A program made the translations under genes and the position numbers. From Podarcis vaucheri (Eukaryota): a DNA stretch of 64,000 nt. The stretch lies in NCBI GenBank assembly GCA_965113315.1, contig OZ220363.1. One strand, written 5' to 3'. The notes below the pieces were generated by a model. The model was not told the origin of the DNA. It saw only the letters and a list, made by a program, of their open reading frames with translations, and did no database searches. This document shows, piece by piece, positions 7,802 to 59,638 of the stretch (position 1 is the stretch's first letter; every line of letters starts with the position of its first letter).

Positions 7802-7810
7802 TGGACAAAG
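7802..7810 (+). CDS. SHANK2: SHANK2 9-nt microexon (VDK)
   Basis: ctctcattAG|TGGACAAAG|GTaagc. Phase 1-1; supplies the VDK of the known Shank2 sequence ELEEL-VDK-ASVRKKK-DK. Confidence 0.9.
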
Positions 7811-12144: not shown

Positions 12145-12165
12145 CTTCAGTACGGAAGAAGAAGG
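12145..12165 (+). CDS. SHANK2: SHANK2 21-nt microexon (ASVRKKK)
   Basis: ctttctattttcaAG|CTTCAGTACGGAAGAAGAAGG|GTaagg. Phase 1-1; encodes ASVRKKK as in Shank2. Confidence 0.92.
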
Positions 12166-28355: not shown

Positions 28356-29212
28356 ATGTCACTGGGCAGCAAGATGGGGAGGTTCCTGGATCTTCTGGAC
28401 AGCCCAGGCACCAGAGAGGAAGTTCACCATCCACACCTGCAGAAGAGCAAGAATCCTCAGTGCCAGCTTCTGATGAAGATTCACCAGCCAGAACTACAGA
28501 GAGTTGGCCATGGCCATTGTCATCATCTGAAACACACAGCAACCTGGGGGAAGATTTTGAGGGATTTCCAACACCAGAGCGGACTCCGCAGTGTACAATG
28601 GACATACAATCTCCTGGGGATCAGTCTCTCAGTAGGACTCCCCAATATGAGAGTGACTCTCCTGTGGAGGGAAATGATGAAATGAACGAAGAGCACCATG
28701 GTGTTCAGCCTGTCCCTAGGGATCGGGGTTGGAGAGGGCAAACTCAGCTGACAGAGGGAGAGAGGTTATTAATGGAAACCAATAGTAGGATTGTACAGCT
28801 GCTGGAAAATATCAAGAGAGAGCATGCACAGTCCATGGGTCTCATGTCACAGTCCATGGGCCGGATGGAGCTGCAGCTAGGCATTGTGGCTACATCCACA
28901 AGAGCCATCCATAACTACCTGTCTGAGATTTTAGCTTTCCTCAAACAACCAAGGACACAGGTCCTTGAAACACGTATCTCCCAAAGAGCCACACCTCATG
29001 TTGAGTTAACGAGTGCCTCAACGTGGACTGGTGAGGATGCAGTGGCAATGCCCACTGGATACTTACCAAGGGATGAAGGGATTAATGACTCTCAAGAAAC
29101 ACTGCAAGCCACACTGCCTCGTCGCAGTGGCCGAATGCAGAGAGCCATAACAGAAAGGGCCTCGTTGCCCATGCCCATGCGCCAAGCAAAGGGGGGAGGG
29201 AAGAAAAAATAA
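28356..29212 (+). CDS. Intact Harbinger-ORF1-derived exon (285 aa: acidic S/P-rich region, amphipathic/coiled-coil helix, basic tail); candidate alternative last exon of SHANK2
   Basis: Open from acceptor ttgattgccAG|AT to TAA at 29210-29212, with an in-frame TGA at 28346-28348 just upstream. Phase 1 matches the SHANK2 donors at 7450, 7810 and 12165. Confidence 0.7.
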
Positions 29213-39415: not shown

Positions 39416-39959
39416 GTAAAATGAAACTTTCTACAAGCGACGTTTCATTATTTTCAACAATTGCTTACAGTGTTTGTTTCAAATGCATTTGTTCATGGGT
39501 TGATTTTGAGTCTTGATCAAATAGCCATTGCGTGAGAACAAACTGGCCCGTTCACATGTCATATTGAACCATAAAATAAGCTGTACTTTAATGTGAGAGA
39601 GTAGCATGCAAATGCATGTTTGAGAAATGGCAGGTATTTTGCTCTTCCCCCACTGCTCCTGCTGCTGCCGCATTGCTGTGAAACAAGATGTGGTTTTGCT
39701 TCTCAAGTTCATGGTTTATTTTTATCCAAACAAACCATGAGCAGAAGCCAAGGTTTGTTATTGGCTTACCACTTTGGGGAAAACAAATAATGAGTCCAGG
39801 TTTAGACAACATGACATACATACCAGACCATGGCTTGTTTCGTGGAAGCACAGCATGAGCAGCAGAAGAGCAAAGCATCTCTGCTTTTTAGAAGCATGCA
39901 GCAGCACATTCACATTAAACCATAGCTAAGATATCATGTGACATGTGAACCAGGCCAGT

Positions 39960-40467
39960 CAGTGGCAGAGGAAGCCGCTCGGGCACTCGGAGCGGCAAAC
40001 ATGATGTGCACCCGGGGGCGGGGCGTCGCCACATAGCACACATGTGCGGCATCGCTACGTACGACGCATGCGCCATACGTAGCGACGCCGCAGAAGCGCA
40101 CTACGTAGCAGTTTGCTGGCGGCAGGGTCCCGGGATCCTCTGCTCGTGGCTGCAGCCGCGAATGGAGGATCCTCTACATGCGGCTGCAGCCGCGAGCAGA
40201 GGATCCCGGCCAGCAAACCGCTAGGTGCCGCCACAAAACCGCTACGTAGCACACATGTGCGCAAGCGCACTACATAGCGGTTTGCCGGCAGCACAGTGTC
40301 GGGATCCTCTGCTTGTGGCTGCAGCCACATGTAGAAGAACCTTCATTCGCAGCTGCAGCAGCGTGATGGCTGCTTGCGGCGCCACGGTGGGGCACGGCCT
40401 TGTCACCCCTGGAGACGTGGCACCAGGAGCACACCGCCCCCACCGCTACCCCATTGCGACACCGCTG
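39960..40467. mobile_element. hAT-type MITE, GC-rich, 8-bp TSD
   Basis: TSD AGGCCAGT at 39952-39959 and 40468-40475; ends cagtgg...ccgctg. Confidence 0.85.
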
Positions 40468-42150
40468 AGGCCAGTGTCTGTCAATAACATTGGCTGAATA
40501 TTGCAACTGGAATTTGTGCTCTTTGAAATATACAATTTCTTAAGTAATTCATTTTTTTTTAGCTTGTTTATTTCAAATATTTATTTACTGCTTAATATCA
40601 GAATTTCTTAGCATACAAAATGCATTTATAAATCAATAAGTAACAAAGTAACCAACAGCAGACAATCCCTATAAAGTATGGTAAAATCCAAACCAAATTT
40701 AATACACATTTAAATTTTATGTTTATTGAATCAAAAGCATCTACTTTTGCACATTTGAAAATGTTTTAGCATTCTGATTTCCATGTGTAGAATTTTGTTT
40801 ATATCACAATGCCAAATTCATACTACAAAAAGAAGAACAATAATTTTTAAAAAGACTATATTGGTAAAAGTTACTCAGAAGTTAGTTTTAAATGCAATCA
40901 TTCTTCTTTGCTTTATAATTGTGTTTTATAATCTGTGTATATGTGATAAGATGGTATTTTTGTTCAAAATAATTACAGAAAGCTTTAGTAAAATATATAT
41001 TAATTGGTCCATTTTGCTGTAGAAGTATTTGGTTGTACAATGAGGAAGTTAAACAGAGTCAACATATGCTTTATGGAAATGTATTTTTCTGCAAAATGAT
41101 GTTGTTTTAGTCATATTGGAAACTTAGTCAAAGGTCTTATTCCCCACAATTTCAATTGCTATTCTTGCTGTAATAGCAATGGCAAGCAGAGACCAAAAAG
41201 ATACATTTAACACCAAACTTTAATTAGAGCAGGTTGCAATATGGGAGTTAAAGCTGAGAGGCAACGTTTTTCTTGTCCTTTCTTCTCCTTTATGTTTGAA
41301 GGGATATTCTCTTCCCTGGTGAAATAATGAAGTTATTCTTTGCAACTCTCTACATAAAAATAGTTACAGGAAATACAGTGAAAGAAATGTATATTATCAA
41401 CTATTACAAGGAATAGCAATCAGCCCATAGCTTAGATAGACCCTTTTGCTGCTGTTGTTTCATCCTGAACACAAACCAGCAAGCCAGCTATATTAATTAT
41501 TACTTCAGAGACTGTCTGTGTAAGGAGAGCATCTCTTTGCTCTGTCTGTACCAGGAAGTACCACAAGTAGCTTGTGAAGCCATTGCCTCATGCTGTGACC
41601 TGCCCTGGTTAGTGCTTCACGTCTAGCTTTCCAGCATGAAATCTAGCACCTCATACAACAGGTAGCAATCTCACTCCAAAGTTACATATGTTTGTTTGGA
41701 AGGTTGTTTCACAATGCCTCTCAATCCACTCTCTTTACCCATGTAGAAACATTGTTTTATCATGTTTCATGCATGGCCACCTATTCACAAATGCCAACAT
41801 GCATACATTTATTTATTTCTAAGCTTTCCTTTCCTTTCTTCTTCCAGTCTTTCACAGCTTTTGGCTGATAACTTCCTTTTATGCACAGTTCATAAAAAAA
41901 CATTACTTTAGGGATGCACAATTCTCTGTGCACATATGTAAGAAAATGCTGGAAGATCAGCATAGGGACACTGAGGCAAGCCAAAATGTAAACTGAAGAT
42001 CTAGTTGCAGACATCTTCTAAAACCAAACCATGCATAGTAATATATAATACAGTATTTTCTGTACCTGGTTTACTATGTCTTTGGTGACAATGGATGATA
42101 ATTAAAATTCAAGAGCAATTTAAAAATTGTAGCTTGTGATTTTTTTAAAG

Positions 42151-44566
42151 GGATAACAGAGGAAGAACGGCAATTTTTGGCTCCTCCCATGCTAAAATTT
42201 ACCAGAAGTCTATCCATGCCAGACACCTCTGAAGATATCCCTCCTCCTCCACAGTCTTTACCTCCATCACCACCACCTCCATCTCCTTCTCTTTACAACT
42301 CCCCCAAATCTCCAGTGTCTAGAATATATGGGACAATTAAGCCTGCATTTAATCAGAATTCAGGTGCAAAGTTAGCTATTTCAGGTAGATCTGAAAATAT
42401 GGGAACGGTGATAAGGGACAAAGGGATATATTACCGGAGAGAGATGGACCGTTATTCTCTAGATTCTGAGGACTTATATAGCAGAAATGCCTCAACTCAG
42501 GCAAGCTTCAGAAACAAGAGAGGTCAGATGCCGGAGAACCCATACTCTGAAGTTGGAAAAATAGCAAGCAAAGCAGTGTATGTCCCAGCCAAGCCAGCAA
42601 GACGGAAGGGAATGCTAGTGAAACAATCTAATGTTGAGGATAGTCCAGAAAAAACCTGCTCTATTCCAATTCCAACTATCATTGTTAAAGAGCCATCTAC
42701 CAGCAGTAGTGGGAAAAGTAGTCAAGGAAGCAGCATGGAAATTGACCCACAGTCTTCAGAGCAACCAGGACAGCTCAGACCTGAAGATAACTTGACTGTC
42801 AGTAGTCCATTTGCAGCAGCCATTGCAGGGGCAGTGAGGGATAGGGAGAAAAGATTAGAAGCCAGGCGTAACTCTCCAGCTTTCCTTTCCACAGATTTGG
42901 GAGATGAGGATGTTGGGCTATCGCCTCCAATGCCACGTTTGAGACAGTCTAAGTTTAGTGATGAGGGAATGTTTGGTAATGAAGACAACTTTAGGCAACT
43001 TGTATCACCATCTCCTATCCCAGCACCTAGAGAGCCTGAAAATATTTTTAATAGCAGTGAATCAAGTAATCAAAATGATGCAAGGACACCAAACCCTCCA
43101 ACCCCAACATCCATGGGTTCAGAAAATAATGTGTTGGCAACTCAGAATGCTGGTATGTCCAGTTTGGATAACTATGTTCATCCACTCACAGGGAAATTAC
43201 TGGATCCAAATTCACCTTTAGCCCTTGCCCTTTCTGCCAGAGATAGAGCCATGAAGGAACAAACCCAGCAAATTCCAGGGAAAGGAGAATCTGGCAAAGC
43301 AGACCTTAATAAACCCCTTTATATAGATACAAAGATGAGGTCCAACATCGAAACTACATTTCCAGTGACAGCTACAATTGCTAGGCAAAATACGCGTGGT
43401 CCACTAAGGCGGCAGGAGACGGAGAACAAATATGAGACAGATACGGGGAAAGAGAGAAGGCCTGAAGAAAAGAAGAACATGCTGATCAATATTGTGGATA
43501 CCTCACAGCAGAAGTCCGCTGGTTTGCTCATGGTTCATACGGTAGATACAGCGCAGTCCAATGAGACCCCTGATGAAAAGGAAGAGGAAAGTGCTGAGAT
43601 AGATGTGGATACTGAAAAGCCTCCACCAGAGGCGCAGGAAAGTACAGAAACAGCAGAAAGTGGACTAGATGAAGCTGACATGCCTGAGCTACCTGCATCT
43701 CCCTGCAAAACTATTGTAGCAGTTGGCTCCGTTGATGATCCAATCATTTTACCGTTCCGTATCCCTCCACCCCCTTTAGCATCTGTTGACCTTGATGAAG
43801 ATTTCATCTTTACTGAGCCATTACCACCGCCTTTAGAATTTGCTAACAGTTTTGATATCCCAGATGACCATTCTGTCCCAGGCTCTGCACTAACAGACTT
43901 GCTCAAACACAGAAAAAATGGAACTCCGCCTGCTTCATTCAATCCTACTCAACCCTCAAATTCAATAGACAGTAAGAAACCAGTGGGTCTTTCAAACTGT
44001 TTGCCTGCCTCATTTTTACCACCGCCTGAAAATTTTGATAATGTCACTGACTCTGGGATTGAAGAGGTGGACAGTCGAAGCAGTAGTGACCATCACCTAG
44101 AGACAACCAGCACTATCTCAACTGTGTCCAGCATCTCTACCTTATCCTCTGAAGGTGGTGAGAACTTGGATACTTGTACAGTCTATGCAGATGGGCAAAC
44201 ATTTCTGGTGGACAAACCCCCAGTACCTCCTAAGCCAAAAATGAAGCCCATAATCAACAAAAGCAATGCACTTTACAAGGATGCGCTAATTGAAGAAACT
44301 GTAGATAGTTTTGTTATTCCTCCACCTGCCCCACCCCCACCTCCTATCAGCGCACAGCCCGGTATGGCTAAAGTTGTACAGCAAAGGACCTCTAAGCTAT
44401 GGGGTGATGTAACGGAGGTTAAAAGCCCAGTTCTCTCAGGCCCAAAGGCTAATGTCATTAGTGAATTGAACTCAATACTGCAGCAAATGAACAGAGAGAA
44501 ATCATCAAAGCCAGGGGAAGGATTGGAGTCACCTCCAGGAATAAAAACAGCAAGTCTTAGTACAAG
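42151..44566 (+). CDS. SHANK2: SHANK2 large proline-rich exon, with Homer ligand PPLEF at 43827-43841 and cortactin-SH3 ligand KPPVPPKP at 44214-44237
   Basis: ttttaaAG|GGATAACA...ACAAG|GTaaat. 2416 nt, phase 1-2; contains the 797-aa ORF of the track (GITEEERQFLAPPMLKFTRSLSMPDTSEDIPPPP...). Confidence 0.98.
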
Positions 44567-46119
44567 GTAAATGCAACTAAATTATTTTTTAAGTCTATAG
44601 TTTCCGTAAGTTTAAATTGCCTTTGCTTTCATTAATAATGTCTTAAATACCATTTAATCTTATGTTTAAAATGCATGGTATTAATGCTCCAGTGTTAATT
44701 TTTGACCCTCTTAAAAATCTACAAAATACGTTAATTGCTATTATCATTTTTCACCTTTGCCCTTCTTTGTTTATGATATTAACACATATTGAAACATGCT
44801 ATCTTTTACTATGCTGCTAGTTAAGAATCAATTTCACCTCTCCTTTCTAGAATCCCTGGTTATGTGTTTTATGGTTTACCCCTAACTTCTCCACATTTAA
44901 TGAAAAGGTTTCAAAGTGGCTCTAAGTGACAGCTGACTGGTTATAGTTCTGATTTAATTTCAAGTTGATATTGCTTCAGCAGTAGCTATCTTATTTAGAA
45001 TGTGTTGAGTAGTTTTGTGTGTTTTATTTTGCATGATACATATGTTTAGTTTACAATGCAAAGGGCCACATGTGGCGCTGCATGTATTTGCCAAGGTTTT
45101 TCGTCTTCCTGCTGCAATCCATTACAACCTCCAACAAAGCACTCCTGAGAATCCAGTTGGAGGTGGAAGGAAAGAGAGAAATCAGCAGTCCCACATGCAA
45201 ATGTAGAAGTGCTTTCTGCTCACACCTTTGGATCCCAGCCAGAATCTCTCTATGCTTTTTTAGTAAATGAAATAAAAATCTGTCCTTTATTTGATAACAA
45301 ATATTCTAATGCAACTTTAGAAAAAACCAAAAGTGACACATTTAATCTCAAAAATATTTATTTTATTGCATGGGCTTCAGCGCGTGCAGGAAAGGAGAAT
45401 GCACTAATGGACCATATTCTGGTTTCATTTTTTAAAATCAAGTTTCCTGCTGGATCATACCAGCTGCTCATTTGGTCTAGCATCTTGTTCTCACACTGTG
45501 CACATTCAGTTACTCCAGTAAAGCGATCAAGGTACATTAATGATTTGTTGTTTGAGCTGTTTGGTTTTAATTGTTGGAAGAAGAGTAGTCACAAAGCCTG
45601 TCCTTTAGTCTTTTCTAGGGTGGCCAGAGACAAAGGATACAAGGGCTTTTGCACCTCTCTCAATTGTGGAATTTTGTTGTGTGCATCTTATCATGCAGGG
45701 GTGAAAGCAGCTGCACTTTCAAAAAAATCATTTTCTACACAGCTATTAAAAATGTGAGAGGTCTGTCATCCTCTCCTCTTCATCAGAGCATACAACTGCC
45801 ATGGTCAATAATACATTACTTTTTAAAAACTTTTTTTTAAAAAACATGTTCTCCATGGTGGTAGTATATGGTGGCAGGGTCAGCTTTGTCATCCCATCTT
45901 CAACCACCCTGCCTTACAGCCAGTACCACTGAAAGATTGCATTTGTCAGACATATTTTTAAAGTCAATATTGTGAAATTTATTGAGCCTTTGGGTGGATT
46001 TGTTGCACTTGCTATGATAGGTTCTAGGACTTTCAACTGAAGGTAGTGACCCATGGTAGCGGAACAGTAGAGTGATGTAAGAAACCCCAAACTCTGAATG
46101 TACCATTTTTTACCTGTTG

Positions 46120-48510: not shown

Positions 48511-49426
48511 TTGAAAAGATATAACCAGCCTACCTCCGTAGCAGTCTTAAGAGTTTGGATGTTTCCAAACAAGTTTTCCACCCTTTGGAGGAAAAAAAAT
48601 ATATTTCAACTACTATGCATTTCAAAGACACATTTGTGTGTGTGTGTGTTGAAATTATGCCATCAAAACCAAGTGCATAGTAAAATTGCCAAAATAAAAG
48701 AATTAAGTCCTTAGCTGAATTCAATCTGTAAATGACAAGCATAAAAAATCAGTCCCTGAGCAGATGGGTTAGTTTTTGTTCTTTGTACTCCCATCCTGCT
48801 TTAAGCTGTTTATGGGAAGAAATTGGGTGTCCTTGCCACATAATCTTTGTTAAATTAATCTTACAAAAAGCAAATTATAAAGACCTCACAAAAGCCTGTT
48901 GATTATCAGAGAGCAGCTGTTAGAGCTCCTTCTCCCCGGCTTTTATTATAAACTCTGTACTCCCTACCACCACCACCCATTCATAAATACGCAGGTAAAT
49001 ACATTAGCAAGTCAATAAGCAGGTTAATCTACCTCTGAACCAAATAGTTGTATTAAAACACAATGATCAAGTATCCACTGAATAATTACTGTATCAATAG
49101 AGTAAAGGAGGTAACTGTGAAGAGGGAAAGAAAGGGGCAGGAAGCATCTTGAACAATTTAGGCTGGAACCAGTATCTGTTATCCTGGAGGTTTATTCTAA
49201 TCCATAATGATGTTACAATAGTTGCAGGGTTGCCAGCCTGAAACTGTTGACTTAATATCTTATTCAGGGAAGATTCTGTTCTTCTGACACTCTTTTGTAC
49301 GCTAGTGATATTTTTTACTATGTGTCCTCAGTCCTTCCTGAAGCCAGGAGGTATTCAAGTGTTTCATTGCCATGCATTAATATACTGAGTTGTAAATGTT
49401 TCATTGTTGACACAATTTTGCCCCAG

Positions 49427-49430
49427 ACAG
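49427..49430 (+). CDS. SHANK2: Candidate 4-nt frameshifting SHANK2 microexon (ACAG)
   Basis: ttttgccccAG|ACAG|GTAAGT: consensus donor 4 nt after an acceptor that has a UGC motif. Inclusion shifts the last exon to a stop at 59176-59178. Confidence 0.55.
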
Positions 49431-49925
49431 GTAAGTGAAAAGTAAATCAAGAAGATGAGTATAAGCATTGGCAGATGTTGAATTGGTCACCTTTGAACCT
49501 CATAACCTTAGAGTTTCATAAATAACCCAACAATCAGAGAGGTGTTTTTTTAAAAGCTGAACTTTGTTACATCCTTTACTTTCACTTCATCTTGTTAACT
49601 GTTTGTCGGCCAATTTTGCAGATGCTTTTGCTTTGTAACTCTACAGTGTCTCAGTCATTCCATTTTGTCATTTTATTTGCTCTCATGACTGCCGTTAACA
49701 GAAGAGGGGCATTCTGAAGTGCCAAGAAGTAAGTGACAACCAAAGGGGGTTTATTTGGGGGTTGTTTCTTTTTTTAATCCATGCATTGGTTCACATTAGT
49801 TACTTTTTGTTCGTTTTTCATTCATAGTTTGGATTAGATATTTCTCCTATCCAGAAGTGGTAGCCATTCTTTAAAATTCACCATAGGTCTTCAACATTAG
49901 ACCCTTTCTTACATAAATTTCACTA

Positions 49926-50058
49926 ACAGATGGGTAGCCGTGTTGGTCTGCCATAGTCCAAATAAAAAAATTCCTTCCTGTAGCACCTTAAAGACCAACT
50001 AAGTTAGTTCTTAGAACTAACTTAGTTGGTCTTTAAGGTGCTACAGGAAGGAATTTTT
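49926..50058. mobile_element. Penelope-like fragment with perfect fold-back and 13-bp TSD
   Basis: gggtagccgtgttggtctg...gcaccttaaagaccaac resembles squamate Penelope termini. TSD ATAAATTTCACTA at 49913-49925 and 50059-50071; 46-bp perfect arms. Confidence 0.75.
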
Positions 50059-50522
50059 ATAAATTTCACTAGTACTCCTGTTAGGTATCATTCGTCAAGA
50101 AATAGGAAAAGGGTCAGGTAACTTTAAGGACATTTTCTATGAGTTCTGGGTGTGGTTTTCCAGGCTAATTAGGCACAGATGGTGGTGTGTATAAAGAGAA
50201 GAAGTTGCAGTTTGCAACTGCCTGCAAAAAGAAAACACCCACATGCTTTGTGTTTGTTGTTTGTATAGCCTTAATAAAACTCTTGTTTGAGTGTTTTACA
50301 CCAGTCTTGTGGTTCTGTCATCTGCCACCAGGGAAAATTTGCCTCCAACAACTCCAACTCTAGAGTTAGTGAAAGTGTGTAGTTAAAAAAAAATTAAATT
50401 AAAATATGAGGAATTGAGCCAAAGGATAAAATTCAGCCATGTCTAAGCCTTGTTGAAATCAATGACACAGTCAAATGCTTAATTTATATTGCATTGTACT
50501 TGTAAAGCCTCTTACCTAGTGT

Positions 50523-53880: not shown

Positions 53881-54930
53881 CAGTGGTGCCTCGCAAGACG
53901 AAATTAATTCGTTCTGCAAGTCTCTTCGTCTTGCGAGTTTTTCGTCTTGCGATGCACGTTTTCCCATAGGAATGCATTGAAAATCAATTAATGCGTTCCT
54001 AGGGAAACCGCCTTCAGACCAGGTCCGGGGACAGTCTGTCCCCGGACCTCTTCTGAAGGCTGGGGGGGGGACAAGGGCTTTTCTTCCCACCCCCAGCATT
54101 TTAAAAAACCCCGGGACAGCAGAGGACTTCTCCACTGTCTGGGCGATCTTAAAATGCTGGCGGGCGGCATTTTAAAATCGCCCCGGGACAGCGGAGGACT
54201 TCTCCGCTGTCCGGGGCGATTTAAAAGCCCCTGGGAAGGCAGGCAGGGGGGACAAAGACTTTTGCCCCCCGCCAGCCTTCAGAAGAGGTCCTGGACCTCT
54301 TCTGAAGGCGGGCGGGGGGCGAAAGTCTTTGCTCCCCCCCCGCCTGCCTTCAAAAGCCCTCCGGGACAGGCAGGCAGGGGGCAGCAAAGACTTTCGCCCC
54401 CCGCCCGGCTTCAGAAGGTGTTCCCTCCCCGCCGCCCGGCTTCGGAGCATCGTTCCGGGGGCGGGGGCAGGTGTTCCCTCCCCGCCGCCCGGCTTCAGAG
54501 CATCGTTCCGAAGCCGGGCGGCAGGGGCAGGTGTTCCCTCCCCGCCGCCCGGCTTCGGAGCATCGTTCCGAAGCCGGGGGGCGGGGGCAGGTGTTCCCTC
54601 CCTGCCGCCCGGCTTCGGAGCATCGTTCCGAAGCCGGGGGGCGGGGGCAGGTGTTCCCTCCCCGCCGCCCGGCTTCGGAGCATCGTTCCGAAGCCGGGCG
54701 GCGGCGGGGGGAGGCGTTCCCGCCCCACTGCCCGGCTTCGGAGGAGGTCCGAGGACAGTGGGGAAGACGCGCTGCGCTTCCCCGCTGTCCCGGAGATTTC
54801 CCTATGGGCTGTCGTCTTGCGAAGCAAGCCCATAGGGAAATTCGTCTTGCGAAGCGCCTCCAAAACGGAAAACCCTTTCGTCTAGCGGGTTTTCCGTCTT
54901 GCGAGGCGTTCGTCTTGCGATGTACCACTG
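53881..54930. mobile_element. Young Tc1/mariner(Tigger)-like non-autonomous element (1050 bp, TA TSD) with an internal minisatellite
   Basis: TA|cagtggtgcctcgcaagacg ... cgtcttgcgatgtaccactg|TA; repeated subterminal cgtcttgcga; CpG-rich. Confidence 0.92.
54417..54742 (+). repeat. 60-bp GC-rich tandem repeat (about 5 units), each unit carrying a hairpin
   Basis: Lines 54481, 54541, 54601 and 54661 align with period 60; unit cccggcttcgga-gcatcgt-tccgaagccggg. Confidence 0.95.
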
Positions 54931-58452: not shown

Positions 58453-59064
58453 CGTAGGACTACCCCTGGTGTGCCAGGTCACTGTACTAAGAGCATTCAG
58501 CTAGTTCAAAACACAATGGCCTGCCTCCTGAAGGTGAAGTTCCCAAGCATCAGAACTGGGTTCTTCTAGGATTCTGGCCTGTGCTTAGCAAGACAGGTTT
58601 CAGCATGTAACTTACCTTGGGAACTGCCTCCTCTTCTGTACCCTGTACCCTTCTGTCTTCTGATCTCTTAGATGTAATTTCCTTGGTGCATCAACTGTGC
58701 AACAAATTAGAACAATGACACAGAGAAGCATCCTTGGTTGTTTTGTCCAGTTTTGGAACTCTCTTGTGAGATTCACCACACTTAAATGCCTTCTGCTACC
58801 ATAATGCTCTTTGGGGCAATGATTCAGTGGCTAGAGTTAATTTTTAGCAGCATATTTGAGATTGTCTTTGACTTTTAAAATATTTGTAAAGCTTGCTCAT
58901 AGTTTTCTGCCACTATTGTTTTCATAAAGTCGTATGGTATCTCTTTGGCATTTATATATATCTTTAATACGTAATCGTGTCATAAGTTAGCAATGAGCTG
59001 ATTTGTATTTTTAATACTTGGAGAGTCTGAATATTCCCTGTTCATTTTTATTTGTTTATTTCAG

Positions 59065-59638
59065 GGGCACAGAAGTCATGAGCACTGTCTCAGGTACTCG
59101 AAGTTCAACCATCACTTTTACTGTCCGGCCTGGGACAAGCCAGCCAATCACACTGCAGAGCAGATCCCCAGACTATGATAGTAGGACACCAGGAGCAAGA
59201 CATGCTCCAAGCCCAGTGGTTTCACCAACAGAAATAAGTAAGGACATCATGCCAGCTCCTCTGACTGCTGCTGCTCCAGTTGCATCTCCTTCTCCAACAC
59301 TTTCTGATGTTTTTAGCCTACCCAGCCAGCCTCCTTCGGGGGACCTCTTCGCTTTGAACACAGGGCGCAGCAGGTCTCCTTCTCCCTCAATCTTGCAACA
59401 GCCAATATCAAATAAGCCTTTTACAACTAAGCCTGTCCACCTGTGGACCAAGCCAGATGTGGCAGATTGGTTGGAGAGTTTAAACTTAGGTGAACATAAA
59501 GAGACCTTTATGGATAATGAAATAGATGGCACTCACTTACCAAACCTTCAGAAGGAAGACTTGATAGACCTTGGAGTGACTAGAGTTGGTCACAGAATGA
59601 ACATAGAAAGAGCCTTGAAACAGCTACTGGACAGATAA
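59065..59638 (+). CDS. SHANK2: SHANK2 last coding exon, SAM domain and stop
   Basis: tttatttcAG|GGGCACA, phase 2. Ends ...WTKPDVADWLESLNLGEHKETFMDNEIDGTHLPNLQKEDLIDLGVTRVGHRMNIERALKQLLDR* (Shank SAM domain). Confidence 0.98.

Follow-up and report, generated by a model that had tools for sequence, protein, structure and literature searches.

Alternative exons and C-termini of Shank genes

The neural microexons of Shank2 measure 9 nt (exon 19) and 21 nt (exons 20 and 23) according to the available text of PMC3276563, PMC7821500 and PMC11283458, and reporter constructs show a response of the 9-nt exon to SRRM4 (PMC11283458, available text). The accessible part of PMC6060255 gives exons 19, 20 and 23 together with the exon 22 donor as the alternative exons of the gene, and it also states the zinc-dependent role of the Shank SAM domain, as assumed in the original prediction that a 4-nt microexon switches this domain on and off. 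That prediction had further appealed to SAM-less Shank2 isoforms reported in mammals. This support is lost, as the precedent, SHANK2 AF141901, arises otherwise, through use of an alternative 3′ end within exon 22 (PMC3276563, available text), and was undetected in mouse or rat (PMC6060255, accessible part).

Another case is that of the Shank3 variants E21-22S III/IV and E18S III/IV, in which a frameshift brings a premature stop into the last exon and removes the SAM domain. However, they arise when exon 21, or a part of exon 22, is skipped; they involve no microexon and lose the proline-rich region as well (PMC4113141, available text). Finally, NMD-insensitive splicing of non-triplet segments generates alternative C-termini and dual-coding regions, for example through a microexon of C. 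elegans tnt-3 (PMC13247117, the available text of which leaves Shank unmentioned).

A candidate 4-nt exon in the last intron of a lizard Shank2 gene

The window, the whole 64,000-nt stretch of DNA analysed here, covers the 3′ half of Shank2 from a Podarcis-like lacertid lizard. By sequence comparison, the gene is the Shank2 orthologue. Compared with Shank2 isoform X7 of Podarcis muralis, its large exon (42150-44566) shows 99.75% identity and its last coding exon (59065-59638) 100%. The latter matches Pfam SAM_1 at its residues 126-187 (E 2e-22), and the paralogues Shank1 and Shank3 were located on other contigs of the same genome. Annotated lizard Shank2 proteins join 44566 directly to 59065, across a last intron of 14,498 nt. 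Two stretches of this intron (54416-54793 and 49917-50357) hold a 60-bp GC-rich tandem repeat and two dispersed repeats, all ordinary. The features on which the argument turns are the following.

42150..44566, + strand: large proline-rich penultimate coding exon of Shank2 (start approximate to the codon; donor AG/GTAAAT at 44567)
49391..49426, + strand: candidate acceptor region (35-nt AG-free zone, short pyrimidine tract, CAG at 49424-49426)
49427..49430, + strand: candidate 4-nt exon ACAG, the terminal AG of which could alternatively act as acceptor in recursive splicing with a zero-length exon
49428..49436, + strand: CAG/GTAAGT donor, the sole one in the window, both strands considered, to match the U1 consensus at 9/9
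59065..59638, + strand: last coding exon of Shank2, canonical frame with the SAM domain (from sequence identity and Pfam)

The sequence AG/ACAG/GTAAGT occupies 49425-49436 of this 14.5-kb intron, with the acceptor AG at 49425-49426 and the donor GTAAGT at 49431-49436. The layout described in the original prediction (TGAC, UGC and AG/ACAG/GTAAGT) was verified at all coordinates. The TGAC at 49408-49411 places a branch A 17 nt 5′ of the candidate exon, matches to yUnAy are found at 49400-49404 (TTCAT) and 49407-49411, and the UGC at 49419-49421 lies inside the pyrimidine tract of the candidate acceptor. A UGC near the acceptor, a long AG-free zone and a nearby branch point are features of SRRM3/4-type microexons. 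The candidate site has all three, and it also has the size and splice sites of this class (3-27 nt, canonical AG, strong GT donor). It sits in single-copy DNA; a transposon origin was rejected, as repeats start about 490 nt downstream and none of the 40 candidates scored covers the site. No RBFOX motif was found within 2 kb of it, and the last introns of Shank1 and Shank3 in the same genome contain no 4-nt site.

The candidate resembles the known Shank2 neural microexons in gene, short length, strong donor and AG-free upstream zone. However, those exons have lengths divisible by three, are located 5′ of the proline-rich exon and appear in a mouse catalogue, whereas this one is 4 nt long, lies in the last intron and is uncatalogued. 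The predicted form and AF141901 both lack the SAM domain, but AF141901 also lacks the proline-rich region and carries an extended exon 22 with no frameshift. As in the class of PMC13247117, inclusion of a non-triplet microexon ahead of the last exon would alter the tail; the cases in the available text of that work have RNA or annotation support, whereas the Shank2 candidate is a sequence motif of just 4 nt.

A second microexon-like site was observed 271 nt downstream, at 49702-49728 (+). It is 27 nt long, with a 7/9 donor, a UGC, a 45-nt AG-free zone and, just upstream, a YCAY cluster in the top 1.4% of 60-nt windows. Included alone it would lead to a stop after five residues, and behind the 4-nt exon it would be open in the shifted frame. 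Motifs as strong as this second site arise in 40% of simulated introns.

Other uses of the same donor

Two other readings start from the same letters. In recursive splicing, an acceptor AG regenerates a donor with the end of the upstream exon. Here, the AG at 49429-49430 would be the acceptor and the strong donor would be regenerated, so that splicing of the intron would proceed in two steps and leave a canonical mRNA. An AG directly followed by the donor consensus is present (CAG/GTAAGT, 49428-49436), this YAG/GTAAGT lies behind an AG-poor tract, and such a site predicts the blank in proteins and catalogues reported below. Nevertheless, we judge a recursive site quite unlikely. The intron measures just 14.5 kb, whereas in vertebrates recursive sites tend to lie in much longer ones; an AG is present four bases upstream and should be encountered earlier; and YAG/GTRAG is found four times in sense and six times in antisense in the window.

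The donor at 49431 could also close a longer cryptic or poison exon, and exon definition is easier at such lengths than at 4 nt. The best candidate is the following.

49332..49430, + strand: candidate rival exon of 99 nt ending at this donor (stop codon at its nt 8-10, which leaves 89 nt to the last junction)

The early stop of this 99-nt exon would trigger decay, while with versions of 41, 83 and 125 nt the last exon would be read in the third frame, which stops after a few codons. Of the 20 AGs within 300 nt, the acceptor of the 99-nt exon is the richest in pyrimidines (fraction 0.75). However, the branch-like motifs and the AG-free zone favour the AG at 49425, and none of the 194 protein models described below contains such an insert. 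We judge a longer exon unlikely.

Frequency of the motif

A 9/9 U1 match is found at one of the 851 GT sites of the last intron, and for the perfect donor 9-mer by itself the expectation is 0.045-0.069 per intron and 0.20-0.31 per window strand. We simulated 400 Markov introns per order (orders 2 and 4) with acceptor, pyrimidine and AG-free criteria; the thresholds of both the simulation and the window scan were fixed after the site had been seen. The numbers of introns with the motif among 400 simulated (order 2, order 4) were as follows.

9/9 donor with UGC: 1 and 4 (0.25-1%)
9/9 donor, UGC not required: 5 and 9 (1-2%)
Donor of at least 8/9 with UGC: 25 and 17 (4-6%)
Donor of at least 8/9: 62 and 59 (15-16%)
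Donor of at least 7/9 with UGC: about 160 (40%)

The window scan, at a donor score of at least 6, returned 31 sense rows and 22 antisense rows, one of the latter with an 8/9 donor and a UGC. It recovered the true 9-nt Shank2 exon at 7802-7810 and missed the true 21-nt exon, which has an AAG acceptor. The motif signal is thus moderately beyond chance. Given the simulation rates, the post hoc thresholds and the antisense rows, the 4-nt site is unusual, yet within what scanning many windows would turn up.

The shifted reading frame

Inclusion of ACAG moves the last exon into the +1 frame, which yields a 37-residue tail and loses the SAM domain. The arithmetic of the original prediction holds for the frameshift, for the loss of the SAM domain and for a stop within the last coding exon, and the TGA is followed by a TAG in the same frame. 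A transcript with the ACAG exon would probably escape EJC-dependent NMD.

59065..59178, + strand: last exon read in the shifted frame (37 residues, among them 6 His and 2 Cys; TGA at 59176-59178)

The segment 59065-59178 had been proposed to be dual-coding. We reshuffled synonymous codons 20,000 times under two schemes, gene codon usage and uniform usage. The +1 frame stayed open over 37 codons with P 0.09 and 0.28, respectively; at least six His appeared with P 0.009 and 0.08, and at least eight His plus Cys in 0.14% and 1.5% of shuffles. When the two exons were cut into 26 non-overlapping windows, the tail had the most third-position C (z 2.5, against 2.1 and 2.0 for those ranked next), in a single genome and by a statistic picked since its value looked odd. 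The shifted frames of Shank1 and Shank3 both close at codon 4. The canonical frame of 59066-59180 (+) is conserved from sharks to mammals, and a related short motif occurs in Shank3. As this frame is itself conserved, conservation of the segment needs no second frame. What stands of the dual-coding proposal is a mild open-frame and third-position signal in one genome, and the product is absent from all the junction-reaching proteins examined below.

Metal binding by the His- and Cys-containing tail, also proposed at the outset, is unsupported by the sequence comparison. The closed shifted frame of Shank3 contains 6 His and 1 Cys in the same 37 codons, behind its stop at codon 4, which weakens the idea, and the 37-residue tail matches no Pfam family at E 0.1. 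Each His in the shifted frame corresponds to a third-position C ahead of a Thr, Ile or Met codon, and the His-rich frame would be a by-product of such C-ending codons in a Ser/Thr-rich segment.

Search for use of the exon

We stored 224 Shank2 proteins from 20 clusters, sampling large clusters in part; 194 reach the junction and 30 stop short of it. The shifted tail is found in 0 of these 194 proteins, 129 of which continue into the SAM domain, while 60 end at the donor and 5 have unrelated ends. All five short proteins that reach the junction end at the donor. The 60 proteins ending at the 44566 donor are most likely gene calls on genomic contigs that reflect the donor consensus. Read-through of this donor (44565-44570, +) gives Arg-stop immediately. 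The pigeon model P0016, which has R-Q after the junction, was considered as a shifted tail and rejected, the rest of its tail being unrelated. A weak search of 5.8 billion clusters gave no candidate homologue of the tail, and there were 0 matches at E 0.001 among 1.84 billion representatives. These blanks in protein databases weigh little, because ordinary aligners and gene models miss exons this short; indeed, STAR and HISAT2 lose sensitivity for exons below 8-10 nt (PMC7821500, available text).

At the nucleotide level, contigs from 4 of the 24 listed runs were compared with 58800-59390. Three contigs from two runs matched, all intronic, and there were no exon contigs, joints or loose ends at 58800-59390 in these four runs, none of the runs being recorded as RNA. 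A 21-base pattern, used to look for orthologous DNA, was matched in metagenome contigs and rejected, as 14 of 14 loci fall in one bacterial gene family with dissimilar flanks. Scans of prokaryote and viral contigs for related loci found nothing.

The look-up of the last intron in mouse used an end position of the Shank2 gene that we take to be correct. The intron coordinates themselves were derived from exon positions in the part of the PMC12148930 supplement that was available, and were compared with the mouse MicroExonator table (PMC7821500, file 2; 2,988 rows, built on a GENCODE plus VastDB library from 289 bulk samples). This file contains the 9-, 21- and 21-nt Shank2 microexons in consecutive rows and no row within the last Shank2 intron. 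It also contains no ACAG exon, with eight other 4-nt rows for the six tetramers queried. The mouse blank is the strongest evidence against a mammal-wide 4-nt exon; a reptile-specific exon is beyond its reach.

No report of a last-intron Shank2 microexon was found in the literature searched, which excluded subscription papers and several supplements, nor was any mouse study describing a very small exon late in Shank2. A last-intron exon goes unmentioned in the available text of PMC11449796, PMC12148930, PMC11283458, PMC11328446, PMC13080001, PMC12953806 and PMC13240960. Long reads captured for Shank2 in PMC11328446 comprise 495 transcripts from mouse cortex and 277 from human. Supplements of PMC5630039 (11 of 27 files) and PMC4317164 (4 of 5 files) and those available for PMC11283458 hold no informative SHANK2 row, 12 of the 19 files of PMC7935315 hold SHANK2 expression rows only, and in 12 of the 20 files of PMC12148930 the rows concern upstream Shank2 exons only.

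Exon turnover elsewhere in Shank2

The 22-kb intron 12166-34485 contains a single-copy open frame of 287 codons at 28356-29212 (+). It is 80-94% identical to inserts in Shank2 gene models of cobra, turtle and bird, and the insert occurs in 10 of the 224 Shank2 proteins; mammals, amphibians and fish are not represented among these 10. The acceptor at 28356 matches the phase of the preceding exon. Use of an internal donor after 29030 would give a 675-nt in-frame cassette (28356-29030) adding 225 residues between the PDZ domain and the proline-rich region, and reading on to the TAA at 29210-29212 would give a protein with PDZ and a new tail, without the proline-rich region or the SAM domain, as in model P0168. 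The frame matches no Pfam family above the cut-off. Judged by these matches, 28356-29030 is coding sequence conserved in reptiles and birds and, as a putative exon, better supported than the 4-nt one.

Orthologues of the 9-nt (7802-7810, +) and 21-nt (12145-12165, +) Shank2 brain microexons are present in the window, the former identical to mouse. The 21-nt exon 23 of mammals and frogs was found neither in intron 39418-42149 (+) nor in the retrieved sauropsid proteins, and its loss in reptiles and birds is possible. Exon turnover in Shank2 is real, as exon 23 was not found here and the sauropsid-only exon 28356-29030 is present.

Discussion

Our best explanation, held at slightly below even confidence, is that the candidate 4-nt site is a silent exon-like motif, a pseudo-exon in the last Shank2 intron. 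Shank2 would normally splice 44566 straight to 59065 and produce the SAM-bearing scaffold. A 4-nt exon is probably too short for ordinary exon definition and would be skipped unless a dedicated microexon enhancer pathway, such as SRRM3/4, acts on it; any inclusion of ACAG would be low-level noise. The pseudo-exon reading is favoured by the blanks in the 194 proteins, in tail homologues and in the mouse catalogue, by paralogue introns that have no 4-nt site and frames that close at codon 4, by antisense controls that yield comparable motifs, and by a silent literature.

Several observations argue against a pseudo-exon. This is the strongest motif in the window and is rare in simulations (0.3-6%). 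Its shifted frame is open over 37 codons and rich in His and third-position C, whereas both paralogues close at once. It lies in single-copy DNA, gene models miss 4-nt exons, the mouse blank is silent on a reptile exon, and Shank2 gains and loses exons by lineage.

The same observations leave some room for a genuine 4-nt microexon under neuronal regulation, probably restricted to squamates or sauropsids, which we regard as a doubtful but serious alternative. SRRM3/4-type factors acting at the UGC would promote inclusion, the +1 frame would end at the stop at 59176-59178, and the mRNA would likely escape EJC-dependent decay. Shank2 would then keep its PDZ domain and proline-rich region and be unable to polymerise through SAM, which may loosen or cap the postsynaptic lattice. 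The complete anatomy with the only 9/9 donor of the window, a comparable motif in just 0.3-6% of simulated introns, the open and C3-rich shifted frame, and a scan that also finds the true 9-nt exon at 7802-7810, identical to a mouse row, speak for such a microexon. So do the precedents of frameshifted SAM-less Shank3 variants and non-triplet C-terminal switches (available text of PMC4113141 and PMC13247117). Its absence from gene models could be explained by aligners that cannot place four bases. However, it is missing from the mouse MicroExonator table (PMC7821500, file 2), its tail is in 0 of 194 proteins and has no homologue, the thresholds were set post hoc, and the His count is equalled by the closed frame of Shank3. 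Of the original prediction, the anatomy, the frameshift and the SAM loss stand, while use of the exon found no echo in the mouse catalogue or in the proteins. It is somewhat unlikely that a reptile-lineage neural microexon of 4 nt toggles between zinc-polymerising, SAM-bearing Shank2 and a SAM-less form with a dual-coded 37-residue tail.

At present, the 4-nt Shank2 exon is a prediction that is easily tested and not a result. Non-triplet microexons that alter the C-terminus are a known class, so the Shank2 site, if true, would add a new case to it without introducing a new principle. If used, the ACAG exon would rank among the shortest exons known to be regulated. A SAM-less Shank2 that keeps the PDZ domain and the proline-rich region is not described in the literature examined, and, if the prediction is true, it would constitute a natural on/off switch of SAM-dependent Shank2 assembly with all other binding sites kept.
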